From positions 1 through 38,587 of IMG/VR virus record IMGVR_UViG_3300046092_000083: DNA of 38,587 nucleotides, one strand, 5' to 3'. The position numbers were made by a program, and so were the translations under genes. The notes beneath the pieces were generated by a model. That model saw only the letters and a list, made by a program, of their open reading frames with translations, did not search any database and had not been told where the DNA came from. The first letter of the stretch is position 1; the number at the start of each line of letters is the position of its first letter. Positions 4,906-32,900 of this stretch are shown here, one piece after another. This DNA is from a virus. Taxonomy: Duplodnaviria; Caudoviricetes.

Positions 4906-5754
4906 ATGCCAAATTCAAGCATCAACCCACTATCTCGTCACTTTCGTCAACCTGCAATGTACATTAAGTTAACCAGCGGCGGCAAGTACTGGGCAGACGG
5001 TGCGCTAGAGCTTCCGGGTACAGGGGAACTACCAGTGTTACCAATGACCACAAAAGATGAAATCATCTTGCGCACACCAGACGCACTAGTTAACGGAACT
5101 AGCGTAGTGCAAGTGATCGAAAGCTGCTGCCCAAACATTAAAGATGCGTGGGCTATGCCAAGCATCGACGTTGATTCTACGCTAATTGCAATTCGCATCG
5201 CTAGCTACGGGCAACACATGCCTATTAGCAGCATGTGCCCTGCATGTGAATAATAAAACGACTATGATATCGATCTAGCAGAGTCGTTGTCTAAAGTAAA
5301 AATTCCAGACTACGTTACCCCAATCGCAGCAGACGAAACACTAACTATTCAGTTAAAGCCTATGCCTTACTCACAAGTAAGCAAATCAGGCGGCGTTAAA
5401 CTAGAAGAAGAAAAATTGATCCAGGCTCTAGCTAATCCAGACCTAGACGAAGAATTGCGTATTGCAGAGTACGATAAGCATGTTAAGAAAATGATTAGTC
5501 TTAACTTAGACAATATTGTAGCATGTACTGAAAGCATCACTGCCGACGGGATTGTGGTTACTAACCCTGCACACATTAGAGAATACTACGCAAACGCAGA
5601 AGCCGGTGTAATGCGTAAAATCAACACACGTATGGAAAGCATCGCAGCAGAAGCTGGTATCAAGCCACATGACGCTACATGCAATGAGTGTGGTCACCAA
5701 TTCAAACTAGCCGTGGAGTTTGATTACTCTAATTTTTTCGCCAAAGGCTTTTGA
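4906..5754 (+). CDS. gp26: Baseplate hub assembly chaperone, T4 gp26-like; one reading frame interrupted by in-frame TAA TAA at 5251-5256
   Basis: ATG 4906 with AGGA SD. Motifs RQPAMYIKLTSGG, PMTTKDEIIL, DVDSTLIAIRIASYG, CPAC, then **NDYDIDL in the same frame continuing into the 5287..5754 ORF with CNEC and NFF. Both ORF-track pieces share a frame. Confidence 0.7.
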
Positions 5755-5969
5755 TTCTCAACGCAGAAGACAGCATGGCCCTCATTGAGGGTTATGAAAA
5801 AGAAACAAAAGCCATGAAAGAGGAAGTGCTGCGTATATGTTGGTATATGCGCGGCGGTATAAGTTACAACGATGCTATGCTGTTAAGTCAGCAGGAAAGA
5901 GAACTTATAGATAAAATCGTTAACGATAACATGGAAACAACAAAGAAATCAGGGCTTCCGTTCTTCTAA
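5733..5969 (+). CDS. gp51-like baseplate assembly protein / probable -1 frameshift extension of the gp26-like gene
   Basis: Frame opens at 5733 (FFRQRLLILNAEDSM...LRICWYMRGGISYNDAMLLSQQERELI). It has only a TTG (5751) or internal ATG start with no clear SD, and overlaps slippery site T TTT TTC. Confidence 0.6.
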   Translation, partial: FFRQRLLILNAEDSMALIEGYEKETKAMKEEVLRICWYMRGGISYNDAMLLSQQERELIDKIVNDNMETTKKSGLPFF

Positions 5970-6006
5970 GTCTCAGTTGTTCATTTATTAAAGTCTAAGG
6001 GTTTAA

Positions 6007-6092
6007 AGATGTCTACGACATCTGTTGTTTCGCTTATCAGCTCACAACATAGGTTTAAGTTTTAATTTGTTAGCTTACATACAGAGCGAAGC
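6007..6092. other. Cluster of DNA mini-hairpin motifs (possible origin or primosome-type element)
   Basis: AGATGTC-TAC-GACATCT 6007-6023; TGTTG...CAACA 6023-6049; GCGAAGC 6086-6092; AT-rich flanks. Confidence 0.3.
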
Positions 6093-6099
6093 GATTTAA

Positions 6100-6475
6100 T
6101 ACTTCATCTAGATTAATTGGTCACACTTTGCCCGAGCAGGGCAAAAAATGATTGAACTTCATCTGAGTAGCACAGTCACTTAGCGTTACAACAATTACAG
6201 AGGCGGTCGTCCGGTACCTCGAGTTGCGTCTTTATACGACGGCAGTTTATATACATACGCTAACACATATATAAACGTTAGGGTTTTTCTCCCTTCTTTT
6301 AGCCTTGATTAAATTCTTTTCAAACAGCAAAACCGGTTTTATGAAGGCATATCCGATCGTCGTCCTGTTAAGGATAGTTGCTGAGTGCTCCATACAGCGT
6401 GGAGTCTTCCGTCCCTGTGACCCGAGGTCCAGTTTTCCTAGGCGCCCGACTTTTAGCTGGCGCTTGCCTTATACT
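6100..6475 (-). ncRNA. Candidate large structured noncoding RNA downstream of the GIY-YIG gene (boundaries approximate)
   Basis: About ten closely packed stems in a noncoding gap. G-U extensions mostly favour the minus strand, and loop UUAGCG(U) (6257-6263) is complementary to downstream (A)CGCUAA (6180-6186). Confidence 0.55.
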
Positions 6476-6500
6476 GTGTATCCTGCTTAGACTTTGTGTC

Positions 6501-6929
6501 TTAAATTTTGTTTATGATGTGGGAGCCATGGACACGAACAGAAATCTGTCCGTTATAATAATCTGTTGTTTCTAATACTTTACGTTCGAATTGCTCTCTA
6601 GCTTCAATGTAACTACATTCAGCTTTTGATTTGCAAATGTGAAGTATCTCTCTGGAAAAGTTTTCGGTGCCTAATTTTGTAATGTCTGAGGTTAACTCTG
6701 TGCTTGAACCATAATATTCTCTCCAATCGCTATCGATCTTTGAGCGGATTTTCTTTTTCTTTTTCGTGCCATTCTTTAATTTCACTGTTTTCACAGTTGT
6801 TTTAGAGAACTTGGCTAGTTTTTTGCCTATGTACTTTCGGCCAGATAGATTATTTGTAATTAAGTAAACAAACCCAACACAGTCTTCGGGTAATTCTTCG
6901 ACGGGTGCGCCTTGATATATCCAGGTCAT
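6501..6929 (-). CDS. Minimal GIY-YIG family endonuclease
   Basis: 142 aa. GFVYLITN...KYIGKK (GIY-YIG motifs), YYGSS, FSREIL, conserved Glu (YIEAREQ) and YYN. Lys-rich insertion and no C-terminal DNA-binding domain. Confidence 0.85.
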   Translation of the reverse strand: MTWIYQGAPVEELPEDCVGFVYLITNNLSGRKYIGKKLAKFSKTTVKTVKLKNGTKKKKKIRSKIDSDWREYYGSSTELTSDITKLGTENFSREILHICKSKAECSYIEAREQFERKVLETTDYYNGQISVRVHGSHIINKI

Positions 6930-6962
6930 GTTAGATTAGTTTTAGTGCCATGTGTTCTATAG

Positions 6963-8195
6963 TTATGCCTTGATGTTGGTAGTAAAATAATTTGTTATTT
7001 GGGGCTGTTTAAGCCATTGCCATAATGTCAGCTTCTCGTACAATTCCTGCGTTAAAACAGGATCGCCCGGTAGCTCTAGTGCCTTGATGATTGCCTTAAT
7101 TTCGTTGTCTATGTGTTGCTTGAACCATGTAGGGTCGCGTGGATTGCTATCTGCTGGTGCAGGTTCGCTATGCTCCCATTTGCTATATTGTTCAAGCAAC
7201 CGTTTTTTAATATCTTGTGGTAAGTGTTGTATCTGTTGATATGCAGGACGAACTAACATGTTAGTCATTACATCAACTTCTCTCGACACACACCAACGGT
7301 ATAAATCATCTAATGTGTGTACACTCAGTGCGCTAGGCACTGCACGTACTGTAACATATACATGTCCTTGTTTACGATGCTTTAGGTATAAATCAATATT
7401 GTCTAATACCGTTTGTGTACTTGCGCCTTGTCGAATCAAATCGTTTAGTTCTCCTGTACACTCAATACTAACCCCAACATCTACGTGCCTGAATGCGTTT
7501 AGTTTCTGCATCAATGATTCGTTAAACACAGTTCCGTTAGTGGTAAATCCTAGATATATGTTTGTCTTGCCCGCACGTAGTAGGCGGTCAATTAGCTGTT
7601 CAAAGCGAGGGTTAAGTAAGGGTTCCCCGCCTATTAAGTGTACAAACTCCAAGTCTTTTGACCCGCAGATGTAGTCAGTTACATGATCCCATGCTTGTTG
7701 ATCTTCAGTCCAATTCATACGGGCAGCACCTCTGAAGGTCCCTGCTTTGATTTCTTGGACTGCAATCTTGCTGCTGGCCATTGGTGTACACATTCTGCAA
7801 GCAAGATTACATTCGTTACCTAAGCTAATATGAAAGCTGTTAATACGTGGTGCAACATTTTCGTATTTGTTTTGATCAAATGTTTTGTAAAAGTGAACAG
7901 GATCAATTCCGTCTTTGTGATTTTCCTTAACACGCTTGCTGCTCGACCCCATTGCATCTTCGTGGTAGCACATGGCACACAAGGGATCTCTAATGCCTGC
8001 TAATTTGTTAGTACGGGCAGTCTGTTGATGCTCGCTCGCGATCCACTCGGGGATGGTCATGTTATGCACATTGTATTTTGCAGCCGCTGGCGTTCCAAAA
8101 ATGCGATTGGGTTGTGCGCCACAACTGTGGTACGTGCCGTCTGCATTGATATGCACTTCCTTCCATAGAATATTACAAAATACTTGATCGATCAT
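6963..8195 (-). CDS. Radical SAM protein with N-terminal SPASM/twitch-like Cys motif
   Basis: CNLACRMC (CxxxCxxC), GGEPLL, TTNGT; N-terminal CNILWKEVHINADGTYHSC...CAMC. Confidence 0.88.
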   Translation of the reverse strand: MIDQVFCNILWKEVHINADGTYHSCGAQPNRIFGTPAAAKYNVHNMTIPEWIASEHQQTARTNKLAGIRDPLCAMCYHEDAMGSSSKRVKENHKDGIDPVHFYKTFDQNKYENVAPRINSFHISLGNECNLACRMCTPMASSKIAVQEIKAGTFRGAARMNWTEDQQAWDHVTDYICGSKDLEFVHLIGGEPLLNPRFEQLIDRLLRAGKTNIYLGFTTNGTVFNESLMQKLNAFRHVDVGVSIECTGELNDLIRQGASTQTVLDNIDLYLKHRKQGHVYVTVRAVPSALSVHTLDDLYRWCVSREVDVMTNMLVRPAYQQIQHLPQDIKKRLLEQYSKWEHSEPAPADSNPRDPTWFKQHIDNEIKAIIKALELPGDPVLTQELYEKLTLWQWLKQPQITNYFTTNIKA

Positions 8196-9135
8196 TTTTA
8201 CACTTTATACTACATACTTCTAACGGGAATAATTCTAGCCTAGTTAGGAACTCTTCCCATAATGGATCCGCAAGGATATCAGACAGGGGTCGTGTCTTGA
8301 TACTTAAACGATCGCGATACTTTTCAACAAAATCGTTTTGCTGATATCCACTGTTAAACCAAGGGCAAGGAAACACTAGTCCATCAACGTTGATAAACAT
8401 TTCCTTTTTCCAATTTAAGCATTTGGCCCAGCTATGCACATCCTTTTGATATCTTATATCGATTGCCATACCTCGGGCACTTAGGGCGCCTTTTTTCTTT
8501 TGATAGTTGGGCACGTTAATAACAATCTCGGGGCGCAACGGATCGACACCATTAACTGCATAGCGACCGTCAAACTTGGTACTGTATACTTCGTTGAACT
8601 CGTCTACTCCTGCAACTCGTGCAACTTCTTTGATCTCTCTAGTGTGGTGCTCGTTGAAGTTAAAAATAATGTAACTCCAAATGATCCTACACGGTGCCGC
8701 TGCACGTAGACTCTTGATGCCAGCAATGATACTGTCAAAATTGCTATTGACTCTATATAGCTCATTGCTCGCTTGATCCCACCCGTCTACACTAAATGTA
8801 ACTGCATCATTGCTGGTCAGCATGTGCCCTAGTCGGTCCCACCAGTCTACACTCTTGTAGCTACCATTGGTTACAATTCTGACTTGTATGCCGTTGAGTT
8901 TTAAGTATGCAACAATTTCCAAGAACTCTGTTGCATAGATTGGATCGCCTACATCGCCGCAGAACAAGAATGTCTTCATGTTGGTTAGCATAGACGGCGG
9001 AAACGCTGTCATGAATTCATGCAGCGTTATCTCTCTATTGAGCTGTTCGGGCTTTAATTCAGTGCGAGGGCAGCGTGGACATTTTAATGTACACTTGCTG
9101 CTGATCTCGATATGAATGTCTTGTAGGTTAAACAA
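8173..9135 (-). CDS. Radical SAM protein with C-terminal SPASM/twitch-like domain
   Basis: CTLKCPRC, GDVGDP, VTNGS, FSVDG; C-terminal C...INVDGLVFPC...CSIKC. Confidence 0.88.
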   Translation of the reverse strand: MFNLQDIHIEISSKCTLKCPRCPRTELKPEQLNREITLHEFMTAFPPSMLTNMKTFLFCGDVGDPIYATEFLEIVAYLKLNGIQVRIVTNGSYKSVDWWDRLGHMLTSNDAVTFSVDGWDQASNELYRVNSNFDSIIAGIKSLRAAAPCRIIWSYIIFNFNEHHTREIKEVARVAGVDEFNEVYSTKFDGRYAVNGVDPLRPEIVINVPNYQKKKGALSARGMAIDIRYQKDVHSWAKCLNWKKEMFINVDGLVFPCPWFNSGYQQNDFVEKYRDRLSIKTRPLSDILADPLWEEFLTRLELFPLEVCSIKCKNDRSSIL

Positions 9136-10897
9136 TGTCTATGTCTGTGTTGTAACTGGTATAGCCGTTTTCCTTAACAACGTGTAATGTGTTGTTAACT
9201 CGTCCTGCTAACTCATCTTTGTGCGATACGAGCCAAATGCTCTTGTTGCTTTCGCGACTCATTTTCTTAAGGATGCCCAGTGCGTTTTCAACACCACTGG
9301 TATCCATACCCGAGTCAACTAGCTCGTCAATAAACAACAGGTTAATGGGTTGATATAAACTTTCCCATACATCACGGAACGCCCAGCTTAATGACAGGAT
9401 CAATCTGTTTCGTTCACCACGCGACAAGTTGTCAAAGTCCAAGTCACGTCCTAGTTCGGTAATGCTAACTGATAAGTCGTTGTTGAATTTTACAGTATGC
9501 GGCAAGCCAATGCGATCTAAGTATTGTCCTAATCGTGCATTTAAGTAGCTCAAGTTCTGATCGATGATACGCTTACGGATAAAGCTGTCTTTGTTAGTTA
9601 ACAATTTAAGCAAGAACTCTTGGTGCTCTTTCAAACTCACAAGTTCGTTCATTACTTCGTATGAAATTTCCTCTAACGCTTGCTCGCTCATTTCTTTAAT
9701 TTGTTCTGCGTAAGGGTCAGCTTCCTTTTCCTTTGCATTTAATTGTGCAAGTACACTGGCCATACTGCTACGGTGTTCGAACGCATCGCTTTCACGATCG
9801 TAATAGACTTTTGGTTGCGCACCTGCTTCGCCAAATTCAGCCAAGGCATTCTTTAGTTCCACAATTTGAAAACCTAGAGCTTCAAAGTCCACAGTAACAG
9901 TTTCTAATTCTTTTAGTTTAGCTGCTAATTGAGTTTCGTGATTGTCATCGTGCAGTTCTTGTCCACAAGCATGACACTTGTGTTCATGCAATGCGGCAAC
10001 TTCTTGCTCAATGCGAGTGTAGAGTTTACGTTCACGATCCTGATCTAACTCTGCACGTTTAAGAGCTTTGTTTAGATCATTGATGTCTTTGACCTTTTGA
10101 TTGTACTCGCTAAGTTCTTTGTGCGCTTGTAATTCAGCTTCGATGTCTAGAGTGCTCAACTCATCAAATGCACGTTGGAACTGTAATACGTCGCGGTCGT
10201 GATGCTCTGTCCACATTTTCTGGCGTCTACGCAGACTACCAATCTGTTCTTCGATACGCTTGTTAGCATCGCCTACTGCTTTGATGCGATATTCTTCTTG
10301 TGTGATTGCATCTTTAGTGGCTTTGGACAATTCCTTTAAAGACTCGGCCTTCTCAGACAATAGCGTAATGCCCAACAACTGCTCAATGATAGTGCGTTGA
10401 TCATTGGCTTTGAGTGCAAGGAATGGTTCAGTGTAGGTGTTGAGTGCAAGGATATGCTTAAACATATCGTGGCTCATACCTAACATACGCTCAATCTCTG
10501 CTTGAGTTTCGCGGCTGTCGCCTTGGGCCTCATCGGTAATTTCTTTTTCAGTACCCGACACAAAGAACTTCATAATGCCAGGCTTGCGCCCGCGCTCAAT
10601 GCGATAGTCAATGCCATCCTTTTCAAAATCAATAGTAACCAACATGCCTTTGCCGTTGGTCTTGTTGATTAAGTTGTCTTTCTTGATGTTAGTAAGTGCG
10701 TTACCGTATAAAGCAAAGCTCAGTGCATTGATAATGGTGGTCTTGCCTGTACCGTTACGTGCTCCGGTGTCGTCACCGCCTAAGTCCAAGTTCTCGCCTA
10801 GTACTAGAGTTAAGTCGTTACGGTCGAAGTTGACAGCTTGCGTAGCATTGCCTACGCTCATAAAGTTCTTTACAGTTAAATCTTTGATCTTAAACAT
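9128..10897 (-). CDS. gp46: Recombination endonuclease ATPase subunit (Rad50/SbcC-like), T4 gp46-like
   Basis: KNFMSVGN, Walker A GARNGTGKT, coiled coil with zinc hook CHAC, signature LSRGE, Walker B LLFIDE, His-loop VSH. Confidence 0.93.
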   Translation of the reverse strand: MFKIKDLTVKNFMSVGNATQAVNFDRNDLTLVLGENLDLGGDDTGARNGTGKTTIINALSFALYGNALTNIKKDNLINKTNGKGMLVTIDFEKDGIDYRIERGRKPGIMKFFVSGTEKEITDEAQGDSRETQAEIERMLGMSHDMFKHILALNTYTEPFLALKANDQRTIIEQLLGITLLSEKAESLKELSKATKDAITQEEYRIKAVGDANKRIEEQIGSLRRRQKMWTEHHDRDVLQFQRAFDELSTLDIEAELQAHKELSEYNQKVKDINDLNKALKRAELDQDRERKLYTRIEQEVAALHEHKCHACGQELHDDNHETQLAAKLKELETVTVDFEALGFQIVELKNALAEFGEAGAQPKVYYDRESDAFEHRSSMASVLAQLNAKEKEADPYAEQIKEMSEQALEEISYEVMNELVSLKEHQEFLLKLLTNKDSFIRKRIIDQNLSYLNARLGQYLDRIGLPHTVKFNNDLSVSITELGRDLDFDNLSRGERNRLILSLSWAFRDVWESLYQPINLLFIDELVDSGMDTSGVENALGILKKMSRESNKSIWLVSHKDELAGRVNNTLHVVKENGYTSYNTDIDIV

Positions 10898-11913
10898 TAG
10901 AGGTTTCTATAGATATCGAGTAGTAGGTTTTTATTGAATTTGCCATTGTCTAAATTAGTAAGCTGACCTGTGACAATTTGGTCAACACTTTCAAACTCTA
11001 TATTACCCTGAATTTCATATTCGGTTAAGTCTGTGACTTTAGCAGGGATTAGTGTAAGCTCTCGTAATTTGTACGTATCAACAAAGGTTTCTTTAATAAA
11101 AGTTGCTTCTTCGTAGCTGATGTCGATGTCTAAGTTAACACGGCAGTGCATACCGGGTTGTAACATCTTTTCTGTGTGAGTAATAACGTCGCTAAGTTGG
11201 AACACACGGTACTTGGGTTGATCTGGCCAAGCATGATACTCGGGATCCTTGCCCCAATCTAAGATAGTTAATCCGCGATCGTCGTCACCTGCGTCTGCGT
11301 AGTTGTGCGGAAACGCATTACCGATGTAGGTAATGTTGCGTTGGGTTTGTCGTTTATGGAAGTGCCCGCTAAACACATGTCCAAAGCCCTGCATGTCGTC
11401 ACCAGTTAGCTCGCCATGATCTGGCATAGCAACCATTGCGTTCATTAAGTAACCAGGAAGCTCAAAGTGGCCAAACATATATTGACCCTTCATCTTCTTT
11501 AGTTTCTTAAAATCATCTCCCACAAGCCAAGGGGCAATAGTGACATTACCGTCGCTGAACCAATCATTGCAGATTTGAATATTAGGGAGGTGCTTCGCCC
11601 ACTCCACGCTCTGAACGTCACGTTTATCGCGATAGTATAAATCATGGTTACCAGGAATAAAATACACACGTTCAAAATTTGCATTCAGATGCTCCAATGC
11701 TTGCAAGCTATATCCCAGAGTTAGGATGTTGATGCTTGCGCGGTTGTTATGCCAGTCGCCTAAAAACAAACAGGTTTCGCAACCTTCTGCTTTGGCTTTG
11801 GCTGTAGCCCACTTGACAAAGTTCAAACAGTCCTCGTTGTGTAGAGTGCTGTTTGACTTTAAGCCAAAGTGGATGTCGGTAAAGATTGCGGCTTTTTTAA
11901 ATAAATTACTCAT
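10897..11913 (-). CDS. gp47: Recombination endonuclease nuclease subunit (Mre11/SbcD-like), T4 gp47-like
   Basis: Metallophosphoesterase motifs DIH, GDW, GNHD, GHF, SGHFH; TAATG coupling to gp46. Confidence 0.93.
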   Translation of the reverse strand: MSNLFKKAAIFTDIHFGLKSNSTLHNEDCLNFVKWATAKAKAEGCETCLFLGDWHNNRASINILTLGYSLQALEHLNANFERVYFIPGNHDLYYRDKRDVQSVEWAKHLPNIQICNDWFSDGNVTIAPWLVGDDFKKLKKMKGQYMFGHFELPGYLMNAMVAMPDHGELTGDDMQGFGHVFSGHFHKRQTQRNITYIGNAFPHNYADAGDDDRGLTILDWGKDPEYHAWPDQPKYRVFQLSDVITHTEKMLQPGMHCRVNLDIDISYEEATFIKETFVDTYKLRELTLIPAKVTDLTEYEIQGNIEFESVDQIVTGQLTNLDNGKFNKNLLLDIYRNL

Positions 11914-11919
11914 TGATTC

Positions 11920-11949
11920 AGTATAGCAAAAACGTCATAGCAAAATCAA
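11920..11949 (-). promoter_or_regulatory. Sigma70-type promoter with extended -10 upstream of gp47
   Basis: TTGATT (11949-11944), 18-nt spacer, TGcTATACT (-10 at 11925-11920); ATG 6 nt downstream. Confidence 0.55.
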
Positions 11950-11957
11950 ATGGTAAT

Positions 11958-12821
11958 TTACTCATCTCCGTCGTACCCACCGCCGCCGCCCATGCCTTGA
12001 CGAGTGTAACTTGGGTTCAAGTTGTTCATTTCTAGGATGTCGTCGCGTAAGTTTTGGTTACGTTTTTCGATGTTTAGCACACGAGTAAAGCTGTTAGTGA
12101 TAGCGGCAGTATAATACGCAAAAGGGTTCTGCGATTTTGATTCGTCGAATTGTAGTCCAATTTGGGACAGTTGCAAGAGTGCTTGGCTTCGCATTTCGTC
12201 ATTGTATGTGTATCCTCTCCAGTTTGAGCGAGTAGCATAGCGCTCGCATAGTTTCATAAACATGTGTGCTAGCTTGCGGGTCATTGCGCCATGATCCTTG
12301 CTATATACGCCGTCTTCTAGTGTGCCTTTCCAGTGGCTTTTGCCTACTACAACAGGTTCACCTGCTTCGTTGAGCTTGTAATGCAAGAATGGAGGAAAGT
12401 TACATTTGGTGTATTTGGTAGTCTTTGCTTCTTCGGGTTCATCGTATTCGCTTAGGATTTCGTCATCCTCGTCTACCCATGCAGCAACTTTTTTGCCTTT
12501 TTTACTATCGTCGAGTGGTACATGCTCCCAACTCATTATCCTAAAAATAACGTCCGAATCAGCAATAGTGTCTAATTCGATTGCAAATTCATCTAGTTTA
12601 CGCTTTGTACCGTCTGCGGTGGCTAGCTCATGCGCTGCTTTTGCTAAACGTTCTGCCCTATTAGTGCGGCCCTCTAGTATATTGGCCTTGTTGAGCTTTT
12701 TCAAATCCGGCAGAATAATGTCGTAATCACCGTAATCTGGTTGTGTGTAGCAACAATAGGTGTTTTTACTTTTATGAATTTCCTTTAGGATGTCTTTGTT
12801 GTTGAGATAGTTGTGTTTCAT
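11958..12821 (-). CDS. gp55: Late-transcription sigma factor, T4 gp55-like
   Basis: NYLNNKDIL N-terminus; NWRGYTYNDEM, FDESKSQNPFAYYT...NSFTRVLNIEKR. Located next to gp47/gp46 as in T4-like phages, with AAGGAA SD. Confidence 0.88.
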   Translation of the reverse strand: MKHNYLNNKDILKEIHKSKNTYCCYTQPDYGDYDIILPDLKKLNKANILEGRTNRAERLAKAAHELATADGTKRKLDEFAIELDTIADSDVIFRIMSWEHVPLDDSKKGKKVAAWVDEDDEILSEYDEPEEAKTTKYTKCNFPPFLHYKLNEAGEPVVVGKSHWKGTLEDGVYSKDHGAMTRKLAHMFMKLCERYATRSNWRGYTYNDEMRSQALLQLSQIGLQFDESKSQNPFAYYTAAITNSFTRVLNIEKRNQNLRDDILEMNNLNPSYTRQGMGGGGGYDGDE

Positions 12822-16896: not shown

Positions 16897-19800
16897 ATGA
16901 GTTCAGATAAACGATTAGTTAATAGATTACCGGAGCGGGTACGCCGCGAGGATACTCCTGGGGTACGAATTGACTCGGGTCCCTTCATTGGTATTATTAG
17001 AAACAATAACGATCCTACTAGGGCAGGGCGATTGCAAGTATGGATTCCTGACTTAGGTGGTAAAAGTGATGACCCGTCTAGCTGGCGCACAGTAAGTTAC
17101 GCTAGTCCATTCTATGGCACCACTTTCCAGCCAGACAATGTGCAGAATAACAAGTTCTCGGATGTGTCGCACAGCTACGGTATGTGGGCAGTAGTGCCTG
17201 ACATTGGTAACCAAGTAATCTGTACATTCATTGCAGGTGACCCTAACAGAGGTTTCTGGTTTGCATGTATTAACCCTAATTTAAGTCATCATATGGTTCC
17301 AGCAATGGGAACCGGTGGGTCAGTTGATAACAACTTAACAACCGCAGGACTAAAAGAAAAGTACGACCCAAATACCAGCATTTGGCCGGTGGCAGAATTT
17401 AACGAAAACTCAACAGGTGCGATTAAGCCAGGATGGACTAATAACCCCAAGCCCGTGCATGAGTTCCAGGCAAACATTTTAATCCAGCAGGGACTAGACA
17501 GAGATGGGCTGCGAGGTGCTATTGGGTCTAGTAGCCAGAGAGAAAGCCCGAGTACAGTGTTTGGTATTAGTACTCCCGGGCGGCCTCTTAATGATCCAAT
17601 GGACAATCCGCAGTATCAGGCTAAATTAAAAGCTGGTACGCTAACAGAAGCAGATACTGCGATTACAGGTCGTAAAGGTGGCCACACCTTTGTCATGGAC
17701 GACGGATCGTCTACTGGTGCTGACCAGTTAATGCGTTTACGAACAGCAGGTGGGCATCAGTTGCTAATGAATGACAGCGACCGTGTTGTATATCTGGCTA
17801 ACAGCGATGGCAGTGTGTGGCTTGAGTTTACAGGCGGCGGCCATATCAACGTATTCAGTGCCGCAGGCATCAACATGCGCACCGACGGTGAGTTTAACCT
17901 TCACGCAGGAAAAGACATTAATATGCACAGCGGCGGTTCTATTAAAATGAAAGCAGATGTGTCAATTAATAGTCAAGCAAAAGATTACACAATTAAAGCT
18001 GGCAACAGTGTGGGCATACAGTCTGGTAAAGTTGGAGTATTGGCAGACGGTGCATTGAGTTTGCAGTCTGCCAATGGCGGTTGGTTAAGCGACGGTAAGC
18101 TAGCACTACAAGGCAGCAAAGTATTACTTAACACCGAAGCTCCGGCAGCAGTTACCCCAGTAGCTGACATTAAAACAAACAAACAAACAGATACTGGATG
18201 GGACGACAAAAAGGGAATCTGGACAAATCAAGCGGATGTGTTTGAGAGTATCGCTACAATTACTCCGTCTCATGAACCATGGCCTCGTGGGCCAGGTAAA
18301 GGTGCAACAAAGAAAGCAGTTAGCCAGTTTGCCGCGGCACCACAGCCAGTTAAACCTACTAGCGTGTGTGCTCCTCCGGGACAAACATTGCCACCTAACA
18401 TCAATAACATTACCCCAAGTGGGGGAAGCAATGAGGCATTGCTTGAGTCTACATTAACTGGATATGGACTTACTGATAGAATACAAATTGCAGCGATTAT
18501 GGCACAGTGTGCCCACGAGTCTGGCAACTTCCAATTCTTAACTGAGCTCGGGGCAGACAGTTACTTCCAAAAATACGAAGGACGTAGAGACTTAGGAAAC
18601 ACACAGCCCGGCGATGGACTAAAATACAAAGGACGTGGCTTTATTCAGATCACAGGCCGCGACTTGTATACGCAGGCTGGCGCTTACTTAGGGATTGATT
18701 TAGTTAACCAACCGCAGTTAGCAGCAGACCCAGCAACCGCAGCAAAACTAGTGCTATTCTTCTTCTTCCAGTTTAAGAAAAGCAGAACCGCAGGAGTTGA
18801 CTGGAGTGACGTAACAGCAGTGACACGTATTGTTAACGGCGGTACAAACGGACTACCTGACCGAGTGGCTAAATTCTCTGCGTACCAACAAAAATACACT
18901 AACGGAATTGTTACAACTGGATCCGGCGGCGTATTAACTGATGGCAGCGGAAACCCAGTAACAACAGGGTCAACTAAATTAGATCCGGGCCCAGATATTG
19001 CAAAAAGCAAGCCGGTGGTAAGCCCTGCCCCAGGTGAGACAATGAAGAAACAGGATGCTCCTAATCCAGGTGCAATTACCTCAACTGAGTCTAAGATCCC
19101 GGGACTAATTCCTACGCAAATGAAAGCATTGATGATCGAAATTGGATTCGCAGAATCCAATTCAGACTATGCTGCACAAGATACAGACCTAAGCAGAATT
19201 GGTCGCTATGCTTTCAACGCTAATCTATTGCGTGACAACGGGTATATCAAATCTGACTATGTTAAGAAGTACAAAGGCGCAGCCATATTCCAAGCTGGTG
19301 CGTGGACCGGTAAAGATGGTATCAGCGATGCAGCAGGATTTGCTAGTGCAAAAGGAACACAGGATACCCTAATGGAGAAAATCCTTAACGATTACTATAC
19401 ATCATTGGTGAGCAATCGTGGTATCCAAATCGAAGACGATGTGTGTACTGTTGCAGGTATGATGAGTGTTGCGTACTTCCTGAGAGACAGCGAGCGCGGG
19501 TTCTTCAGTGGTAATCCGCCAGACCAAGCTAAGTTTTGGAGAGAACAAGGTAACAACATTACCAATGAGCAGAAACAAACTCCGGACACTGCATACAATC
19601 AAGGTCGCTATGCAATTGACGTATTAAGTATATCAACGGCGGGTGCAAGCAGCGGAACAGTTGGAACAGTAACACCGTCTACAACAGGCATTGACCCCAA
19701 CGAGGTGTTTACGTTTACAAACCGTAGTGGCGATGCAGCTCACTTTGATGTGGCCACAGTTGATTTCAAAGATCGATTGTTACAGGCAGCACGTGATTAC

Positions 19801-20163
19801 AAAGCCGCTACAGGCAAGAAAGTTACTATTAGTAGCACTGTGCGAACACAAGAAGAACAAACGTCAATCTACGACGGGTGGATCGCAGCAGGCGGCCAGT
19901 TGCCGGGGAATCCAACAGTTAACGTTACCCCGTACGGCAATATCAGTCGCCCGGTTAAAACAGTTGGCAATCATGGACTGGGTATTGCAGCAGACATTGG
20001 CGTAGCAGATGCAATTGCAATGGAAAGCATGGGCATATTGGCCAAGTACGGCTTGTATAGATTTGACCCTGCAGGCGATCCGCCTCACATTCAGCTAAAG
20101 CCCGAGCTACGACCAGCTAATTTAGCAACTATCCAGAGCTTACCTGGTAATAGCACAGCATAA
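16897..20163 (+). CDS. gp5: Baseplate central spike / tail lysin, gp5-like, with GH19, a second lysozyme-like domain and a peptidase M15-like domain
   Basis: OB-fold DPTRAGRLQVWIP...PDIGNQVICTF; beta-helix GHTFVMDD/RLRTAGGHQLLMND; GH19 AQCAHESGNF...KGRGFIQITGR...IVNGGTNG; M15-like RTQEEQ...NHGLGIAADI...DPPH. Confidence 0.82.
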   Translation: MSSDKRLVNRLPERVRREDTPGVRIDSGPFIGIIRNNNDPTRAGRLQVWIPDLGGKSDDPSSWRTVSYASPFYGTTFQPDNVQNNKFSDVSHSYGMWAVVPDIGNQVICTFIAGDPNRGFWFACINPNLSHHMVPAMGTGGSVDNNLTTAGLKEKYDPNTSIWPVAEFNENSTGAIKPGWTNNPKPVHEFQANILIQQGLDRDGLRGAIGSSSQRESPSTVFGISTPGRPLNDPMDNPQYQAKLKAGTLTEADTAITGRKGGHTFVMDDGSSTGADQLMRLRTAGGHQLLMNDSDRVVYLANSDGSVWLEFTGGGHINVFSAAGINMRTDGEFNLHAGKDINMHSGGSIKMKADVSINSQAKDYTIKAGNSVGIQSGKVGVLADGALSLQSANGGWLSDGKLALQGSKVLLNTEAPAAVTPVADIKTNKQTDTGWDDKKGIWTNQADVFESIATITPSHEPWPRGPGKGATKKAVSQFAAAPQPVKPTSVCAPPGQTLPPNINNITPSGGSNEALLESTLTGYGLTDRIQIAAIMAQCAHESGNFQFLTELGADSYFQKYEGRRDLGNTQPGDGLKYKGRGFIQITGRDLYTQAGAYLGIDLVNQPQLAADPATAAKLVLFFFFQFKKSRTAGVDWSDVTAVTRIVNGGTNGLPDRVAKFSAYQQKYTNGIVTTGSGGVLTDGSGNPVTTGSTKLDPGPDIAKSKPVVSPAPGETMKKQDAPNPGAITSTESKIPGLIPTQMKALMIEIGFAESNSDYAAQDTDLSRIGRYAFNANLLRDNGYIKSDYVKKYKGAAIFQAGAWTGKDGISDAAGFASAKGTQDTLMEKILNDYYTSLVSNRGIQIEDDVCTVAGMMSVAYFLRDSERGFFSGNPPDQAKFWREQGNNITNEQKQTPDTAYNQGRYAIDVLSISTAGASSGTVGTVTPSTTGIDPNEVFTFTNRSGDAAHFDVATVDFKDRLLQAARDYKAATGKKVTISSTVRTQEEQTSIYDGWIAAGGQLPGNPTVNVTPYGNISRPVKTVGNHGLGIAADIGVADAIAMESMGILAKYGLYRFDPAGDPPHIQLKPELRPANLATIQSLPGNSTA

Positions 20164-23943: not shown

Positions 23944-26900
23944 ATGGCAGCTACAAAAACAATTAACTTTTTACCTGAGATTTTTCAAACCGACACGAAC
24001 AAGAAATTTCTTAATGCAACATTAGACCAATTAATTAGTGAACCTAATTTTAAAAAGGTCAATGGATATATTGGTAGAAAGTTCGCGCCGACGTTTAAAA
24101 CCACTGACAGCTACATCAGCGAAATTGATGCGGCTCGTCAAAACTATCAGCTTGAACCAAGTACAGTAATTGTTAATCCACAAACTGACACAGTTGATTT
24201 TTATAGCAGCTATGTTGATTTAATTAACAAGATTAAATTCTACGGCGGTAACGTTGATAATCACAGTCGTTTGTTCTCTAACGAGATGTACAGTTTCGAT
24301 GGAAAATTTGACTTTGACAAATTTATCAACTTCTCTCAGTACTACTGGATTGAAAATGGTCCAGATGCAGTTGTAGTTAGTGCTAGTGGAGTTCCGACAG
24401 AATACACATGGGATGTGACAATTGATTCCACAACTGGTGCATACAATTTTGCAAGTAAGGCGGGAGCAGATAATAACCCAAACATTACGCTAGCGTATGG
24501 CGGCAAGTATACCTTTAACGTTAAAGATGGTGAATTCTGGATCCAAGCTAAACCTGGTACTAGCGGGTTTGACAGCGATCACCCGAACATCAACGTTCGC
24601 CAAGTGCTTGGCGTAACAAACAACGGAGCCACAACAGGATCGGTTGAATTTATCGTCCCTCAACCAAACGGTCAATCACGTTACACTGACATGCCGTTGG
24701 CACAAAGTGTTGACTACGCAACTACATTGGCTTTCAGAGACATCAACGGTGCAACGTCTGCGGACTTTATTGCTCAGTTCAATGGCTTTGACGGCGTCGC
24801 CGCAGCAATCAATGGCAAACGAATTATTTTTGTTGGCAGCGATATTGATGATTACTTCTGGACCAGCGCATTAACAAATAACGACGTAGTTCCAACTGCT
24901 GATCGTTCTAAGACTTGGCAAGTGCAAGTAGACCAAAATACTGACATCGTTACATTAGTACCTGCAGAGATTGTAAACAGGAACGAACGTGTTTACATCA
25001 AGTCTGGTAACACAAACGCAAGCAAGAACTTTTTCCTTGACTATACTGGTTTTTACAAAGAAGTTCCTTTGCTAACAGCCCCGTTGAAGACTTTATTTTA
25101 TCAAAACTCATTGAGCGGTTTGTCATCTGGTGTTATTTCGTTAGTAGACCCAGCAAGTGCGGTGATTGATCCGTCAACAGACATCGTTGGGCAGAAATCT
25201 TACATCAGCCCAACCGGTGTGGTGTTTACAAACGGCCTTCGTGTAAAGTTTGATACTACTGCAACCAATGGATATGCAGATAACGAATACTACGTTGAGG
25301 GAGTAGGGTCTGCTATTAAATTAGTGCCTGTAGCAACATTGATTGCTCCTGAATTGCCAAACTTAGCGACACATGATTATCTAACAATTAACAGAGGTAG
25401 TCTAAGTGTGAACGCATGGAGCCGTAGTAACCGTTGGTTCCACGTTGATGTGCTAAAAGCCACGGCTGCATACAATAACGAAGATCTAGTACTGGATCAA
25501 ACATTGAGAGCAAGCCGATCAATCATTGAGTTTGAACCAAACGTTCAGTTGTTTAACTACGGTTTCGTTGCTAAGAACCCAGTTAACATCTTTGATACTA
25601 GCATCACCAATGCGTACACTCAAATTGAAAATAAAGCAACCGACAATGACACTACATTAACAGTGACTAATGGCGGAGTTACGCTAACGCTAACACACGG
25701 CGACAGAGTAATTTTCTCCAACGACTCAAGTCCAACTGTTAGAAGTAAAATTTATGTGTTTACGATTGTAGACATTAGCGAAAACATTAACGTGCAACAG
25801 TACATTGGTAACATCGTTGAAGCCGACGATGCAGAAATTGTTGCACATAACAATCTGTTGGTAACCGACGGAACTAGCGCCGGAAAAGAAATATGGTACG
25901 ATGGTACAAGCTGGCACACAGCCCAGCAGAAGACATCGGTAAACCAAGCGCCATTGTTTGATATGTACGACGAAGCAGGTAACAGCTTTGGCGACACAAA
26001 CTATTATGTCAACACTAGCTTTGCAGGAACTAAATTATTTTCATATAAGCCCGGTACAGGCGCAAATGATCCAGTACTAGGTTTCCCATTGAGCTACCGC
26101 ACGTTTAATAACGTTGGTGATATTCAATACGAAAATAATTTTGACGTCGATACGTTTACCTACTTAGTTAGTCCGTCTACTAAAGTTGAAAGCATTAACA
26201 CTGGTTACTTGCACGTAACTACTTCGGTTGATTCATACGATACTACTAACATCTGGGCTAAAACAACAGAAGATAGTAAGCAATATCAAATTATTCGACA
26301 CACTGCTGATGGAGTTAATAACTTATTTGAAATTGACGTACTGCCTAACCCTAGTGCCGATATTCCTAACGTTAAAGTTCTTATAAACAGTAAAGTGATT
26401 AGTGTGAACGACTTTGGTTTAACACAAATCGGCGCACGTTACGCTGTTCTAATTAACCCTACTATGTTAGCAGTTGGCGATAGCGTTGACTTGTTGATTT
26501 ATAGCGGTAGTGTTAGCAAACTAGGTTACTACCAAGTTCCGTCTAACTTAGACAACAACTCTCTAAACGGAAACTTTACGTCACTAACGTTGGGACAAAT
26601 CCGTAACCACTTAATTACGCTAAGTCAAAATTCCCAATCGGTTGTTGGTACAGTACCCGGAAACAACAATCTGCGCGATATTAATATCAAAGCCAACGGC
26701 GGTAGCATACTTAAACATGCTAGTCCTGTAGTTTATAGCAGCTTGTTCTTAGTCGACGGTACTATGAATTTTGTTGACGGTCTTCGTCATGCACAGAAAG
26801 AATACTCTAAGTTTAAAAATAAAATCTTAGAGTTGTCGACACAGATCGAAATCGACGTAAACGACATTGCTGGCTCACTTGACACCATTATTGGTACTAT

Positions 26901-29900
26901 TAACGCAGTAAAGAATTCCAACTTCCCTTGGTATTACAGCGACATGGCTCCGTGGGGGCAAAATAAAACCACATTGCCAGAGTATACTGTTCTAGATCCG
27001 CGTATCCGCGAATACGAACTAACCAAGATCTTTAACGCCACTGAATTAAGTAACCTTGCGGTATTGGTTTATCTAACTCGAACAGTTGGCGGCGTAACTA
27101 CAAAAGAGTTGTTAGTTAAAGGGCAGGACTATGTGTTTAACAGCGACAGACCAACTATCACGGTAGTCGACTCCTTTAACCTAAACTACAATGACATTAT
27201 TACTATTGTAGAATACAGTAACACTGACGGTAACTACATTCCTGAGACCCCATCTAAGATGGGCATGTGGATCACAACAGTGCCACAGATTTATTCAGAT
27301 GATACATTTGCTAGCGGCCCCGTGGACGTGATCCAAGGGCATGACGGAAGCATTACTCCTGCGTTTGGGGACTACCGCGATGCTATCTTGCTTGAGTTTG
27401 AGCGTAGAATCTACAATAACATCAAGCAAGAATTTACACCGTCGATTATTCAAGCAGGAAGCCAATTCCCTGGACGCTTCCGTGTAACTGATTACAGCCT
27501 ATCAGAATTTAACCAAGTTTTGAGCTCTAACTTTTTGAGCTGGGTTGGTAACAACAGACTTGATTACACTACAAACAACTATTTCCAAAGTAACAATCCT
27601 TGGACATGGAACTACAAAAATTTCAAAGATGTACTAACAGGAGATTACTTACCCGGTACATGGAGAGCAATTTTTGATTATTTCTATGATACAGATCGAC
27701 CACACACCCATCCGTGGGAAATGTTGGGGTTCACAGAGAAGCCAGATTACTGGGACGACCGTTACGGTGCAGCTCCGTACACCGGCGGTAACTTAGTGTT
27801 GTGGACAGACTTGAGCCTAGGGTACATCCATGCTGGTGACCGCGCAGGTATCTACCCTGAGTTCGCTCGTCCTGGATTGCTGAATATTATTCCAGTAGAC
27901 GACAACGGTAACTTGCGTAGCCCTGAAAAGTTTGCGGTATTAGACTTTGATAGTTCAAAAGCAAATGCAAGTTATGCAGTGGGTGACTTTGGCCCAGTGG
28001 AAACTGCCTGGCGTCGCAGCAGCGACTATCCGTTTGTATTGATGCAAACTCTTGCTCTATTAAAGCCAGCGTACTTCTTCTCAAACTTTGCTAACATTGA
28101 CCGTTACAAGTATAACAACAGTATTGCACAATACCTAGTAACACCGGGTAACCAGCATCTTACTCCTACTAGTTTAGAAGTAAACGGTTCAGTGGACTCC
28201 GGTGGCAATATCCAACGCACTGCTGGATACGTAAACTGGATTAGCGATTACCTAAAGAACTTGGGAATTGGTGACCCACAATCTAAAATTAAAACATACC
28301 TAAAAAACTTAAACGTACAGTTAAGTTACAAAGCGGCAGGTTTTACTGATAAGCGTTACATTAACTTGTTAGCTGAACAAGGTAGTCCAAACTCAACCAG
28401 CGACAGTATTATTATCCCCGATGATAACTATCGCGTTGAGCTATTTAAATCGGTACCAACTAACAAGATTGCATATAGCGCAGTTATTGTTGAACGCAGC
28501 CAGAACGGTTATACTGTAAGTGGTTACAATCTAAGCAGCCCTTATTTTACTATTGTTCCTAGCCTATCTAACAACAATGCCTATAGTATCACTGCTGGTA
28601 AAGCAACTGGGGTAATCTATAAAGACTACCAAAAAGTTCGTGTGCGTGTGCCTTACGGATTTGAATTTAAAACAACTCAAGAAGTAGTCGACTTCTTGGT
28701 AAGCTACCAGCGCCAATTGCAAAGTCAGGGGTTTGTGTTTACTGAGTTTGATAGCGATCTTGGTGCAAAGCAAGACTGGATCCTAAGTGCGAAAGAATTT
28801 TTAACTTGGGCACAACAAGGCTGGCAAGCCGGTAACGTTATTATCTTGAGCCCAGTTAACCAATCATTGTCGGTTAAGTCAACAAACACAGTAGTGGATG
28901 AGATTACAAACTTGCCAACAGGATCCAAAGTAATGGATCCTAACTTTAGCGTGATTAAGCCTAGCGCATTCTCTGTAATCCGCGAAGACAACAAATTCAA
29001 TATCTCAACTACTAAAGGTCAAACTATTGCGTTTGCAGAATTGCACTTGGTGCAATACGAGCACGTATTGATCTTTGATAACAAAACGTCATTTAACGAT
29101 ATTATCTATAGCCCAGACACTGGCAACAGACAGTTCCGATTGAAACTAATTGGTAGCAAAACTGCTGACTGGACTGGCGCACTAAATCCAGCTGGTTTTA
29201 TATACAATAACAACAAAGTTGACGAGTGGCAACAAGGCAAAGATTATAAAAAAGGATCTTTGGTTTCGTATAAGAATACTTACTACGTTGCGTTAGGCAA
29301 AGTGGTTGCTACGGACTTGTTTGATATTAAACAGTGGAAGCAAATCGATCAGAACAGCATTAAAACTGGGCTATTGCCTAACTTTGCTACCAACGCTGCA
29401 AAATTTGAATCTATTTACGATATCAACAATCAACCAGTTGATGAAGAACTAAACTTCTACAGCAATGGTATCACTGGCTTCAGGGAGCGTCAGTACCTAA
29501 CTGACTTGGCGCTTGATGTGGAAACACAAAGCAAATTCTACCAAGGATATATTAAGCAAAAAGGTACAAAGAACGCGATACTTGCATTGGCACAAGCACA
29601 GTTGGCCAACATCAGTAACGAAATTACAGTTACAGAAGAGTGGGCGTTGCGTGTTGGCGAATACGGTGCAACAGAGAGTGATCGTTTTGTTGAGTTACAA
29701 CTTGATGAAGCAATTATTACCAACAACCCTGCGCCTATTCAGTTACTAACAGATACAGAAACGCCAGTGTATGGTGTGGCGCACTACTACCCTCGTGAAG
29801 TTTACAGAAGCTCATTGACTCATACTCCATCTATGTTTGGTGATTACGTCCCGACTGCTGATGATGTAGTATATCCAACAGCAGGTTACGTGAACATTGA

Positions 29901-32900
29901 CGACGTAGATGCCACTATTTTTGACATTCAGAATTTTGCAGATCTTGGGAATGTGCTAAACAAAATTGGCACTGGGTACACTATCTGGGCTGCAAAAGGG
30001 TTTAGCGGAGATTGGGACGTCTACCGTGTTAGCGAAACAGAATGTGCAGTTACTGGGCTATCTTACAGTATCAACAACTACGCAATCGCAACCACAAGCG
30101 CAGCACATAACCTATCAATTGGCGACATTGTTGCAGTTCGACGATTTGATGATAGATTTGATGGCTTTTACCAAGTGTATGCAATTAACGGAATCAATAG
30201 CTTCACCATTGGCCTACGTCAGAACTATAAACTATTGAGCCAACTACAAACAGTGTCCGGTAACGGTATTCTGTTCAAGTTAGCAAGTGGCCGCATTGCG
30301 AGCCCAAGCCAAGTTGATTCTCATACCCCACCTTATGGTTGGGTACAGAACGACAAGGTGTGGGTTGATACGTTAGATGCAGCAGGTAACTGGGGTGTTT
30401 ACAACAAGACTAGCCCATGGGATTCTGCAACTAAGATCTATCTAAACAGCAGCGAATATCAAGGTCAGGACAACTTTGGTCAAAGTTTGAAAATCTCAAG
30501 CGATGGCAAAATCATGTTTGCTGGCGCACCTAATAGTGGAACTGGTCGTGCTGCAATTTTCTTAAAGACAACTGACGGCGACTGGCTAGAAAACAGTAAC
30601 TTCGTAGTTAGCAGCACTGGCACTAGTGGTTTCGGCCAAGTAATTGATGCAAGCGATAAATCATTTGTTGTTGCTGCTCCGCGTAGCTTGTCGGACACAG
30701 GGTATGTATATGTCTACACTGTGGATGTAGCTACTGGTGTGACTATGAGTCAAGTACTAACAGTAGATGGCGGTCAAGCAAACGACTCGTTCGGTGCAAG
30801 TCTTGCAGTTAGCCAGAATGGTAATTGGTTATATATTGGCGCACCTGGTGCAGGCAAAGTTTATGCTTACGGAATGTATGCAGACAGTTCGTCTATTCAG
30901 ACTCTTACTGCAACTGGTAGCAATAATGACTTTACTCTAACTACTCAAACAATTACAGATCCTTGCGAATTGTTAGTTAACAGCGATACTACTTTAGTTC
31001 CTAATGTTGATTATACAATTATCAATGATGCAGGGACTTACAAGATACGTTTCCTTGTTGATGGAGTAGCAACTGCTCCAGCAGCTGGTCCAATCTTGGT
31101 AACTGTACATTCTCGTTACAAGTTAATTGACACATGGACACACAGTGACGGGTTTGGTACTAGTGTAGCATGTAACCCAGCTGGTGATCAAATTGCCATT
31201 GGTGCAAATACTGCAACCGTTGATGGCGTAGCGAGTGCTGGTAAAGGTTATGTATATGACCGTATGGTTGAAGGCTTCTATGCAAACGGATCAAGTAACA
31301 CATTCATTCCTGTACGTCAAATTGGTAGCACACGCAGAGTTACTGCAAACAGTGTTGAGCAAGTAGCAGGTGTTGATTACAACATTGTTGGTAACAACGT
31401 ACAATTCGTAGTGGCCCCAATTGCTGGTACATTGATTAACATTGAGACTAACCAGTTTAACTTAATTCAAACATTATCTAGTAGCACAGCTACAGATGGC
31501 CAGCGTTTTGGTACAAAGGTAGTTATTAGCCCAGACACTACTAAGATTTATTTTAGTGCTCCGTACTTTAACTTGCCTTACTATAGAAGCGGTGCAGTGT
31601 ACACCTTTGCAAACCAAGGCCGTTTATACGGATCTATTATTGGTACAGTGGCTAATCCAACAGTTACACCGGGTCACAGTATCCGTGTCAACACAGTTGA
31701 AATTCAGTTTACTAGCAATACACTAGCACACGTTGTTAGTAAGATCAACGGTGCAGGCATTCCTGGTATCTCTGCATTTGATGAGAACGGTCACTTGAAG
31801 ATTGTGTCCGCTCGAGTTACATCGTATAACAACATTGGTGTGCTAACTAAGAGTAATAAACTAGATGTGTTGCCGGGTAGCGGAACAACACTAGCTCCGG
31901 GTACTGGAACTGCATTGACTGACTTGGGACTAACAATCTTTGTTCAAACTCAGACAATCACACACCCAATGAGTAACGAGAATGAGTTCTTTGGGTCAGC
32001 TCTTGCAATTAGTGATAATGCCACAACATTGGCAATTGGTAGCACTGGTGCTAAGACTGTTAACGGAACATCCTTTGATTCAACAGAGACTACATTTGAC
32101 GTTGGCAGCTTGAACTTCAAGGATGCCATTGCTAACAGCGGTGCGGTATACATATATGATTTAATGGATAACCCATTTGAGTCAGTTGACAATCCTGCAC
32201 TGTTTGCTTATGTACAGCAGTTACAGGCACCGGCACTAGATGACAACTTTAACTTTGGGGCATCAATTGACATTGCTGGCAACTACATTGTTGCTGGTGC
32301 GATCAATGATTACTCAATTACTGCCCGTGGCGGTAGTATCTATGCGTTTGAGAATACAATGGGCACTCAGGGCTGGGACTTGATCCGCTTTGATGAAACC
32401 CGTGTTGAGCCGAACAGCATTGACAAATTGTACATCTACAACACAAAGACACAAAACATCACTGCTAGACTAGATTACTTTGATCCAGTAAAAGGCAAGT
32501 TGTTAGGGGTAGCTCAACAAGACATTGACTATGCAAGCATAACAGATCCTGCAATTTACAACGACGGTACCGGTGTTGACACTGGTCCAACAAGTAAATT
32601 TGATACAACGTTCCACTGGACCAATGCACAAGTTGGTAAGACCTGGTGGGATACTGACCAGATGCGCTTCATTGATTACGAGCAAGGAGATATTGTTTAT
32701 CGTAGCAAGCACTGGGGCGAAATGTTCCCGGACAGCGTTGTTAAAATATACGAGTGGGTTGAAAGCAGCGTGTTGCCAAGCAAGTATGTTGAAAACGGAG
32801 GCAATGGCATTCCTAGAGATGAATCTGACGGAGCATTTGTTAGCTACACCTTTGTAGATGCAGCCACTGGTTTGTTTAAAACCTTGTATTACTTCTGGGT

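Follow-up and report, generated by a model that had tools for sequence, protein, structure and literature searches.

A conserved pseudoknotted RNA gene beside a GIY-YIG nuclease gene: a candidate transcription-primed replication origin of jumbo phages

The locus and its genomic setting

The window analysed during this work is the whole 38,587-nt stretch of the viral record IMGVR_UViG_3300046092_000083, in which profile matches reveal portal, baseplate, gp46, gp47 and late-sigma genes. Since one protein of this 38.6-kb window has an identical copy on a 354-kb contig and the nearest cultured relatives of its gp46 are those of PA5oct, Phosso, Atu_ph07, GAP32 and XaC1, the DNA is attributed to a T4-related jumbo phage, and freshwater is the main source of the RNA runs that contain it. 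The locus under study occupies a conserved slot between the gp46-gp47 region and convergent baseplate-hub genes (Table 1). It consists of a gene for a SegE-like GIY-YIG nuclease followed by about 530 bp, which an earlier note on this DNA had described as devoid of a credible ORF and packed with stems. Both descriptions were borne out: no ORF longer than 65 aa is present in this gap, every stem listed by the note is found where it had been placed, and the fold computed for the 531-nt minus strand has an energy of -142.8 kcal/mol (z -2.96), a value equalled by one of 100 shuffles.

Table 1. Features of the locus, in window positions
Feature	Position	Strand	Remark
gp46, gp47 and gp55-type late sigma genes	9128..12821	-	upstream anchor of the conserved slot
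Late-promoter-like motif CATAACTA	6960..6967	-	pattern match only
SegE-like GIY-YIG nuclease, 142 aa	6501..6929	-	PF19835; PHROG 447
Structured RNA body, class A, ~380 nt	6103..6480	-	ends inferred from conservation
5' pseudoknot region	6394..6477	-	covariation
5' pseudoknot	6474-6477 with 6394-6397	-	87% paired, 84 compensatory cells
5' pseudoknot	6466-6468 with 6455-6457	-	92% paired, 38 compensatory cells
Match to RF01718 (Polynucleobacter-1) in the 5' third of the RNA	6322..6468	-	109.5 bits (gathering threshold 37 bits), E 4.6e-23; model positions 1-141 (entire model)
Junction-closing helix, 6378-6383/6325-6330	6325..6383	-	99% paired, 138 compensatory cells
13-bp stem 6245-6276, loop 6258-6263 pairing with 6180-6185	6180..6276	-	covariation
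Most conserved core	6189..6242	-	6236-6240 pairs with 6206-6210, the loop of the 6200-6220 hairpin
Helix enclosing the core	6223-6226/6189-6192	-	topology recurs in GAP32-like phages
Direct repeat copy 1, AGATGAA	6158..6164	-	predicted RNA anchor strand
Hairpin separating the repeat copies	6127..6145	-	stem coordinates and covariation
Direct repeat copy 2, AGATGAA	6103..6109	-	landing site predicted on its template strand
Tail	6005..6100	-	predicted to act as single-stranded DNA
TCGCTTCGCTC in the tail	6084-6094	-	
GA-flanked hairpin in the tail	~6024-6049	-	
C(GTA)G triloop hairpin in the tail	6006-6022	-	covarying
Convergent baseplate-hub genes	4909..5969	+	downstream anchor of the conserved slot

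Two radical SAM/SPASM genes (6963-9135, minus strand) lie between gp46 and the nuclease as variable cargo, and the size of this interval in relatives, from 35 to 5200 nt, designates it as a cargo hotspot. As judged by pattern only, the motif (C/G)ATAA(C/T)TA is found upstream of GIY-YIG and of RusA-like genes in relatives, and TATAAATA/CATAAATA precedes four structural genes of the window. The baseplate-hub gene is split into two ORFs (4909-5253 and 5287-5754, plus strand), each corresponding to one part of PF12322; it is a single gene of ~285 aa in cultured relatives, and the split is either real or an assembly error. The same strand carries a baseplate injector protein with a glycoside hydrolase 19 domain (16897-20163) and a 3992-aa ORF with weak FG-GAP repeats (23944-35922) that probably encodes a giant protein of the tail or for adhesion.

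A large pseudoknotted RNA gene

Our results support the view that the gap behind the nuclease is a real, conserved and large pseudoknotted RNA gene. Among the best 80 of 585 nuclease-anchored IMG/VR loci, 73 (window included) extend at least 300 nt downstream, and their RNAs fall into three classes, A (window-like), B and C, with a 3' module common to all. The Rfam search that the earlier note had proposed returned Polynucleobacter-1 (RF01718) as the sole match in the window, well above the gathering threshold of the family. This motif was reported by Weinberg et al. 2010 (PMC2864571) as a probable RNA, probably cis-regulatory, with 16 members. However, its model spans the 5' third of the RNA only, whereas the 3' core, the repeat and the tail gave chance-level Rfam matches, and classes B and C do not reach the family threshold. 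Neither Rfam nor ARAGORN detects a group I or II intron, RNase P or tmRNA, in agreement with the note, nor a tRNA or a known ribozyme. By blastn, class A, B and C RNAs had no match in cultured phages and the class A RNA had none in plasmids.

The RNA gene is present once in each of three complete genomes. Contigs from RNA libraries, whatever the strand and ends of the transcript, span the locus in 4/4 runs, and a 400-nt contig covers ~6057-6456, beyond repeat copy 2. The note was correct about an RNA but ended it at position 6100, while the element continues to ~6005. In six loci (L018, L020, L030, L032, L048 and L061), an ORF of ~70-90 aa with two CxxC-like motifs (by eye) is located between the nuclease and a class-C RNA.

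Covariation, which the earlier note had recommended to examine, was analysed in 93 class-A homologs (mean identity 64%) with custom mutual-information and count scripts that leave the kinship of the sequences uncorrected; helices are given below with the percentage of paired cells and, where two figures appear, the number of compensatory cells. Most of the proposed stems are confirmed, as is the UUAGCG/CGCUAA pseudoknot between 6258-6263 and 6180-6185 (97%, 79). This applies to GCGCC/GGCGC (6442-6463; 98%, 73), CTCCA/TGGAG (6388-6404; 94%, 88), the 13-bp stem at 6245-6276 (91%, 259) and TTTGCCC/GGGCAAA (6127-6145; 90%, 15). At 6200-6220, GAGG/CCTC is retained (99%, 29) and the adjoining CGG/CCG is rejected (33%). 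Weaker pairing was obtained for GACC/GGTC (79%), AGGG/CCCT (75%), GCCTT/AAGGC (73%) and TCCT/AGGA (87%, 2). The long-range AGCAC/GUGCU helix (55%) and the palindrome AAAACCGGTTTT (56%) had to be abandoned, together with CGTC/GACG (6227-6241; 90%, 0), whose bases pair with 6206-6210 instead. Three pseudoknots beyond that of the note emerged from the same 93 homologs. Within the Rfam part, positions 6374 and 6362 (minus strand) covary as T/C in 68 and C/T in 25 of the 93 sequences, indicating a non-canonical pair or a register shift.

A direct repeat and a hairpin tail

Two features absent from the earlier note are found at the 3' end of the element: a 7-nt direct repeat on both sides of the last hairpin, and a tail with GNA-triloop hairpins. 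From 202 loci with an RNA match, eight remained unparsed (six are truncated) and the removal of duplicates left 166. The two repeat copies are identical in 162/166 of these loci across 11 variants, for an expected identity of 50-60% per variable position, bearing in mind that the locus-fetching pattern left copy 2 free but fixed part of copy 1 for many loci, so that the invariant letters of copy 1 are partly due to construction. One of the four exceptions (L149) is a misparse with identical copies on re-parsing, and the spacing between copies is 47-60 nt, one misparse excepted.

Because no complementary partner of the repeat in the RNA figures among the class A column pairs with the strongest covariation (the top 90), this partner is probably the other strand. 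The differences between copies in 165 loci have a direction, with G/A 117 times versus A/G once at +10, T/C 25 times versus C/T three times at +11, and G/A 2 versus 0 inside the 7-mer. At +3, +10 and +11, the mismatches are those expected if copy 1, as RNA, forms G-T or U-G wobble pairs with the strand complementary to copy 2; this bias, drawn from related sequences, is reversed at -3, -2 and +13 and even at +12. From these patterns, we infer that copy 1 may pair with the template strand at copy 2, an antisense RNA being an equally compatible partner. A K-turn or box C/D reading and a pairing internal to the RNA are both broken by the variants (by eye). A reading in which the nuclease protein recognises the repeat was also rejected, the best protein column giving 0.23-0.38 bits versus 0.81-0.95 for the second copy.

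Concerning the tail, GNA triloops are DNA-stable motifs that mark single-strand signals. In 164 tails, C-GNA-G hairpins were counted 103 times on the sense strand, 20 times on the antisense strand and never in shuffles. They number 105 in tails versus 0 in RNA bodies, and GNRA tetraloops 86 in RNA bodies versus 17 in tails. ViennaRNA energies give no advantage to DNA for the last hairpin. With a strict pattern, GNA hairpins occur two to three times per genome and at the locus in two of three genomes, thus not uniquely there. The AT content of the tail just after copy 2 (63%) is slightly above that of the window (~58%), and it is 63-82% in the GAP32-type copies presented below.

The nuclease and its replacement by resolvases

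As the earlier note had proposed, the nuclease comprises a catalytic domain only (PF19835 SegE_GIY-YIG at residues 3-129, E 2.9e-35, with no further Pfam domain), and its basic insertion is predicted to form a β-hairpin (strands 40-50 and 56-66). The model of the protein (pLDDT 79) depicts a bare GIY-YIG domain with this long hairpin, the best structural matches being the I-TevI catalytic domain (Foldseek E 0.046-0.063, probability 0.99), while a sequence search of the PDB found nothing. Residues Y22, Y33, G35, E109 and N126 are invariant in 30/30 homologs. Profile, fold and the conserved Tyr/Gly/Glu/Asn residues place the protein among the SegE-like members of the GIY-YIG superfamily, with a catalytic domain shared with T4 SegE, PF19835 and PHROG 447, and relatives occur in 484 phage records. 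A homing endonuclease of the Seg/I-TevI type was rejected: unlike those enzymes, the window nuclease has no C-terminal DNA-recognition domain, is highly conserved and is found as a single copy in a fixed slot.

The earlier note had suggested that nuclease and RNA form a ribonucleoprotein by analogy with HEARO/OMEGA, i.e. an RNA-guided nuclease in which the RNA replaces the missing DNA-recognition domain. The basic β-hairpin speaks in its favor, as does the linkage: a small nuclease gene lies upstream of the large structured RNA in 72/76 RNA-anchored loci, namely those of 128 fetched that extend 900 nt or more in this direction, and the RNA lies downstream in 73/76 nuclease-anchored loci with downstream DNA (80 loci), the latter count relying on RNA models built from some of those same loci. 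Nevertheless, a sample anchored on gp46, which removes the linkage bias, disconnects the two partners. In the 40 of its 80 loci that reach a baseplate or portal gene, the RNA is always present (40/40, 41-445 bits), but it is preceded by GIY-YIG in 34 and by a RusA-like resolvase in six, never by both or neither, and a PD-(D/E)XK resolvase precedes the same RNA classes. In addition, none of 28 resolvase-anchored loci has a GIY-YIG gene within 4 kb, and their RNA match is strong in 15, weak (48 nt) in nine and absent in four. The RusA-like lineage L281-L291 (IMG/VR) displays only a weak 48-nt class-C match, 0.6-2.7 kb downstream, and may carry a further RNA class.

Conversely, the nuclease exists without the RNA. 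The complete 162-kb phage G010, from another lineage, lacks the RNA but encodes a nuclease with 77% identity, and in P-SSM4 the end of the nuclease homolog is overlapped by the next gene, which leaves no RNA there. G010 is T4-like (also L065 and L271-L279) with a distant gp46 (26%), suggesting that only the nuclease was transferred horizontally. On a tree of 62 nucleases, the RNA class changes 13 times (mean of 25.9 after shuffling), hence a clustered distribution that is far from two changes, and near-identical nucleases carry RNA class A, B or C. HEARO/OMEGA families are mobile, guide-bearing nuclease-RNA pairs. By contrast, the locus described here has a fixed position and a single copy, its nuclease is interchangeable, no guide-like variable segment flanks the RNA scaffold, and its RNA has no Rfam match to those families; neither an obligate co-evolving pair nor a mobile multi-copy element with a variable guide is recognisable. 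We therefore regard an RNA-guided nuclease as very improbable. Since unrelated junction-cutting enzymes replace it in related phages, GIY-YIG is probably a mere neighbor of the RNA rather than its guided partner.

Endonuclease VII and the RusA-like/D14 family (PHROG 244) share the slot with GIY-YIG in a mutually exclusive manner. The families phrog_244 and phrog_423 are absent from the GIY-YIG genomes G001-G003, G010 and P-SSM4 in a search with positive controls, and phrog_447 is absent from PA5oct, Atu_ph07, GAP32, XaC1 and Phosso in a search with no internal positive control. Within this census of endonuclease VII and RusA-like families, the distribution is complementary to that of these known resolvases, phiN3 being an ambiguous case and a possible exception (GIY-YIG plus a weak partial endonuclease VII match). 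Although their folds are unrelated to GIY-YIG and the likeness lies in distribution, it is rather likely that GIY-YIG is a structure-specific nuclease doing the job of the Holliday-junction resolvase. In general terms, Iyer et al. 2021 (PMC7824862) suggested a possible resolvase role for the Uri (GIY-YIG) proteins of jumbo phages.

Related elements in cultured jumbo phages

In PA5oct, GAP32, XaC1 and Phosso, the slot contains a gap of 0.8-1.5 kb that is almost or entirely free of credible genes and adjoins an endonuclease VII or RusA-like gene. No large gap was found in the slot of Atu_ph07. In Phosso, the gap is single-copy and directly followed by RNase HI. A relative of the GAP32 gap is contained in 71 phage records. 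GAP32 itself carries five co-oriented copies (35, 99, 177, 262 and 341 kb), as does XaC1 (15, 49, 117, 209 and 303 kb). Sigma70-type promoters precede the GAP32-like and PA5oct copies, with extended -10 promoters before GAP32-type copies wherever upstream DNA is in view.

The pseudoknot core of class A/B RNAs (748/750 pairs in 150/165 RNAs) recurs in GAP32-type elements (80/80 pairs in 16/17 copies), including the GTTGT/ACAAC core pairing found in both groups. GAP32-type copies also end with repeat, hairpin and repeat, the repeat being identical in 13/16 and the three mismatches not of the wobble type. Searches of GAP32-type, PA5oct, Phosso and Atu_ph07 genomes with the A/B core HMM and covariance model were not significant (best E 0.2), for which reason this kinship is called topological and is based on topology, motif and position. 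An Rfam search of GAP32-type copies gave chance-level matches only. PA5oct has three co-oriented partial copies without any sequence link to the A/B core, their kinship being positional. Its copy at 246 kb is the ncRNA004 of Lood et al. 2020, who report the highest level early (0.08/0.03/0.02% of phage reads) and a 3' end set by hand from RNA-seq. This annotated end coincides with the last base of the CATAAG repeat after the hairpin, a match that may be due to chance.

These copies also bear on an alternative in which the RNA creates an R-loop or branched site that any junction nuclease (GIY-YIG, RusA-like or endonuclease VII) would cut, with cleavage starting recombination-dependent replication or packaging and coupling through DNA structure instead of a guide. 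Three unrelated structure-cutting families directly adjoin the element, GIY-YIG and RusA-like genes have the late-type promoter motif in common, and the nuclease-RNA gap is usually short (<260 nt in 51/56) compared with the variable gp46-nuclease interval. However, shared transcription explains this closeness, four of the five copies in both GAP32 and XaC1 have no adjoining endonuclease VII (one phrog_423 match per genome), and the resolvase points away from the wide gap in four cultured phages. This scenario thus appears quite unlikely.

A candidate transcription-primed origin

Among the functions considered by the earlier note, a replication primer seems to be the best-supported reading of the RNA. 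We propose, with slightly more confidence than doubt, that the RNA gene is a transcription-primed replication origin of a jumbo phage and that the nuclease is a stand-in Holliday-junction resolvase, not a guided partner. The folded RNA, the matched anchor, the predicted single-strand hairpins and the dispersed co-oriented copies fit the logic of ColE1 and T4. In this model, the RNA would be made by read-through from the gp47-gp46 operon and would fold while transcribed, presenting repeat copy 1. Once the polymerase has passed copy 2, ~50 nt further on, copy 1 of the RNA would pair with the template strand there and block re-closing of the DNA, as the rG/dC contact does in ColE1. The RNA beyond copy 2 would stay hybridised, and the end of the R-loop or an RNase H cut would prime the leading strand. 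The displaced strand would then fold its GNA-triloop hairpins, at which helicase and primase may load. During recombination and packaging, GIY-YIG would play a part comparable to that of T4 endonuclease VII by cleaving branched DNA.

In ColE1, the persistent hybrid of the primer requires an RNA stretch on template DNA, and the displaced strand loads helicase and primase (PMC4412123, PMC5043065). The element described here resembles RNA II as a folded transcript predicted to form such a hybrid through pairing of RNA with template DNA, but it lies on a phage chromosome rather than a plasmid, has no evident sequence likeness and no identified antisense RNA I, and its anchor is a variable 7-mer ~50 nt upstream instead of an rG/dC run. 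In T4, at least five origins are scattered over the genome, and the best known of them combines a promoter with an AT-rich unwinding element and an R-loop; ~100 bp is required, but no specific R-loop sequence (PMC3016281). The T4-like gene set, the several dispersed copies and a possible succession of promoter, transcript and AT-rich stretch would recall oriF/oriG, while the transcript differs by its covarying fold of 350-600 nt with a sequence-matched anchor.

Some observations do not favor an origin. The only promoter-like motif by the gene in the window is late-type, which is odd for this function. Base skew has no inflection at the locus in three genomes, where it follows gene strand and is uninformative. 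RNase HI (phrog_531) was not found in three freshwater genomes by a search that also missed the reported RNase H-like gene of PA5oct. The closeness of nuclease and RNA also makes some coupling conceivable. Part of these data would suit a trans-acting RNA with the function of a free ribozyme, a scaffold or a protein decoy. The tail would then be a terminator region, and the repeat would either bind two sites of one protein or pair with antisense RNA transcribed from the convergent baseplate genes. The late-type motif, the convergence of genes on the locus, the 400-nt contig that runs past copy 2 and the silent base skew are all compatible with a trans function, and the elaborate invariant core exceeds the needs of a simple R-loop. 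On the other hand, the lock-step change of both repeat copies in 11 variants is hard to obtain via protein binding, no nuclease residue tracks the repeat sequence, five dispersed co-oriented copies per genome suit a cis-acting site, and the GNA triloops are confined to the tail. A trans-acting RNA is for these reasons considered unlikely, although less so than the junction-cutting scenario.

Returning to the origin model, a broader and more tentative claim, which we find conceivable without holding it to be probable, is that of a widespread class of jumbo-phage origins, with a single copy in freshwater phages and as many as five in cultured GAP32/121Q-type phages, with a multi-pseudoknot RNA whose programmable 7-9-nt anchor captures the template strand and with PHROG 447 as the missing Holliday-junction resolvase. 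In the literature covered, mostly outside subscription journals, the motif appears in Weinberg 2010 only, the full RNA and an origin role are undescribed, and the replication start of GAP32/PA5oct-type jumbo phages is not addressed. The main text of two 2026 genome-language-model preprints (bioRxiv) mentions neither GIY nor Polynucleobacter. New here are a census of the slot that is free of linkage bias, the mutual exclusion of nuclease and resolvases, the arrangement of several co-oriented copies in cultured phages and the connection with ncRNA004.

If true, the origin reading would give a function to an RNA motif orphan since 2010 and point to an RNA-programmed way of making R-loops. The length of the Polynucleobacter-1 element would be tripled, and a large RNA fold would become available for structural work. 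The element also offers exact, mutable sites in phages growing on laboratory E. coli, with a repeat suited to compensatory mutation.

Finally, the slot swap provides a testable function for a very common and mis-annotated family of phage proteins. PHROG 447 (T4-GC 213; L081-L083) has a GIY-YIG domain, yet it is labeled 'NAD synthetase' in many GenBank phage records, a mislabel that extends to hundreds of T4-like genomes. Similarly, the tiny hypothetical proteins annotated inside the non-coding element at L266:5705-6517 (PA5oct 75.7-76.5 kb), L400 and L402 are probably not genes.
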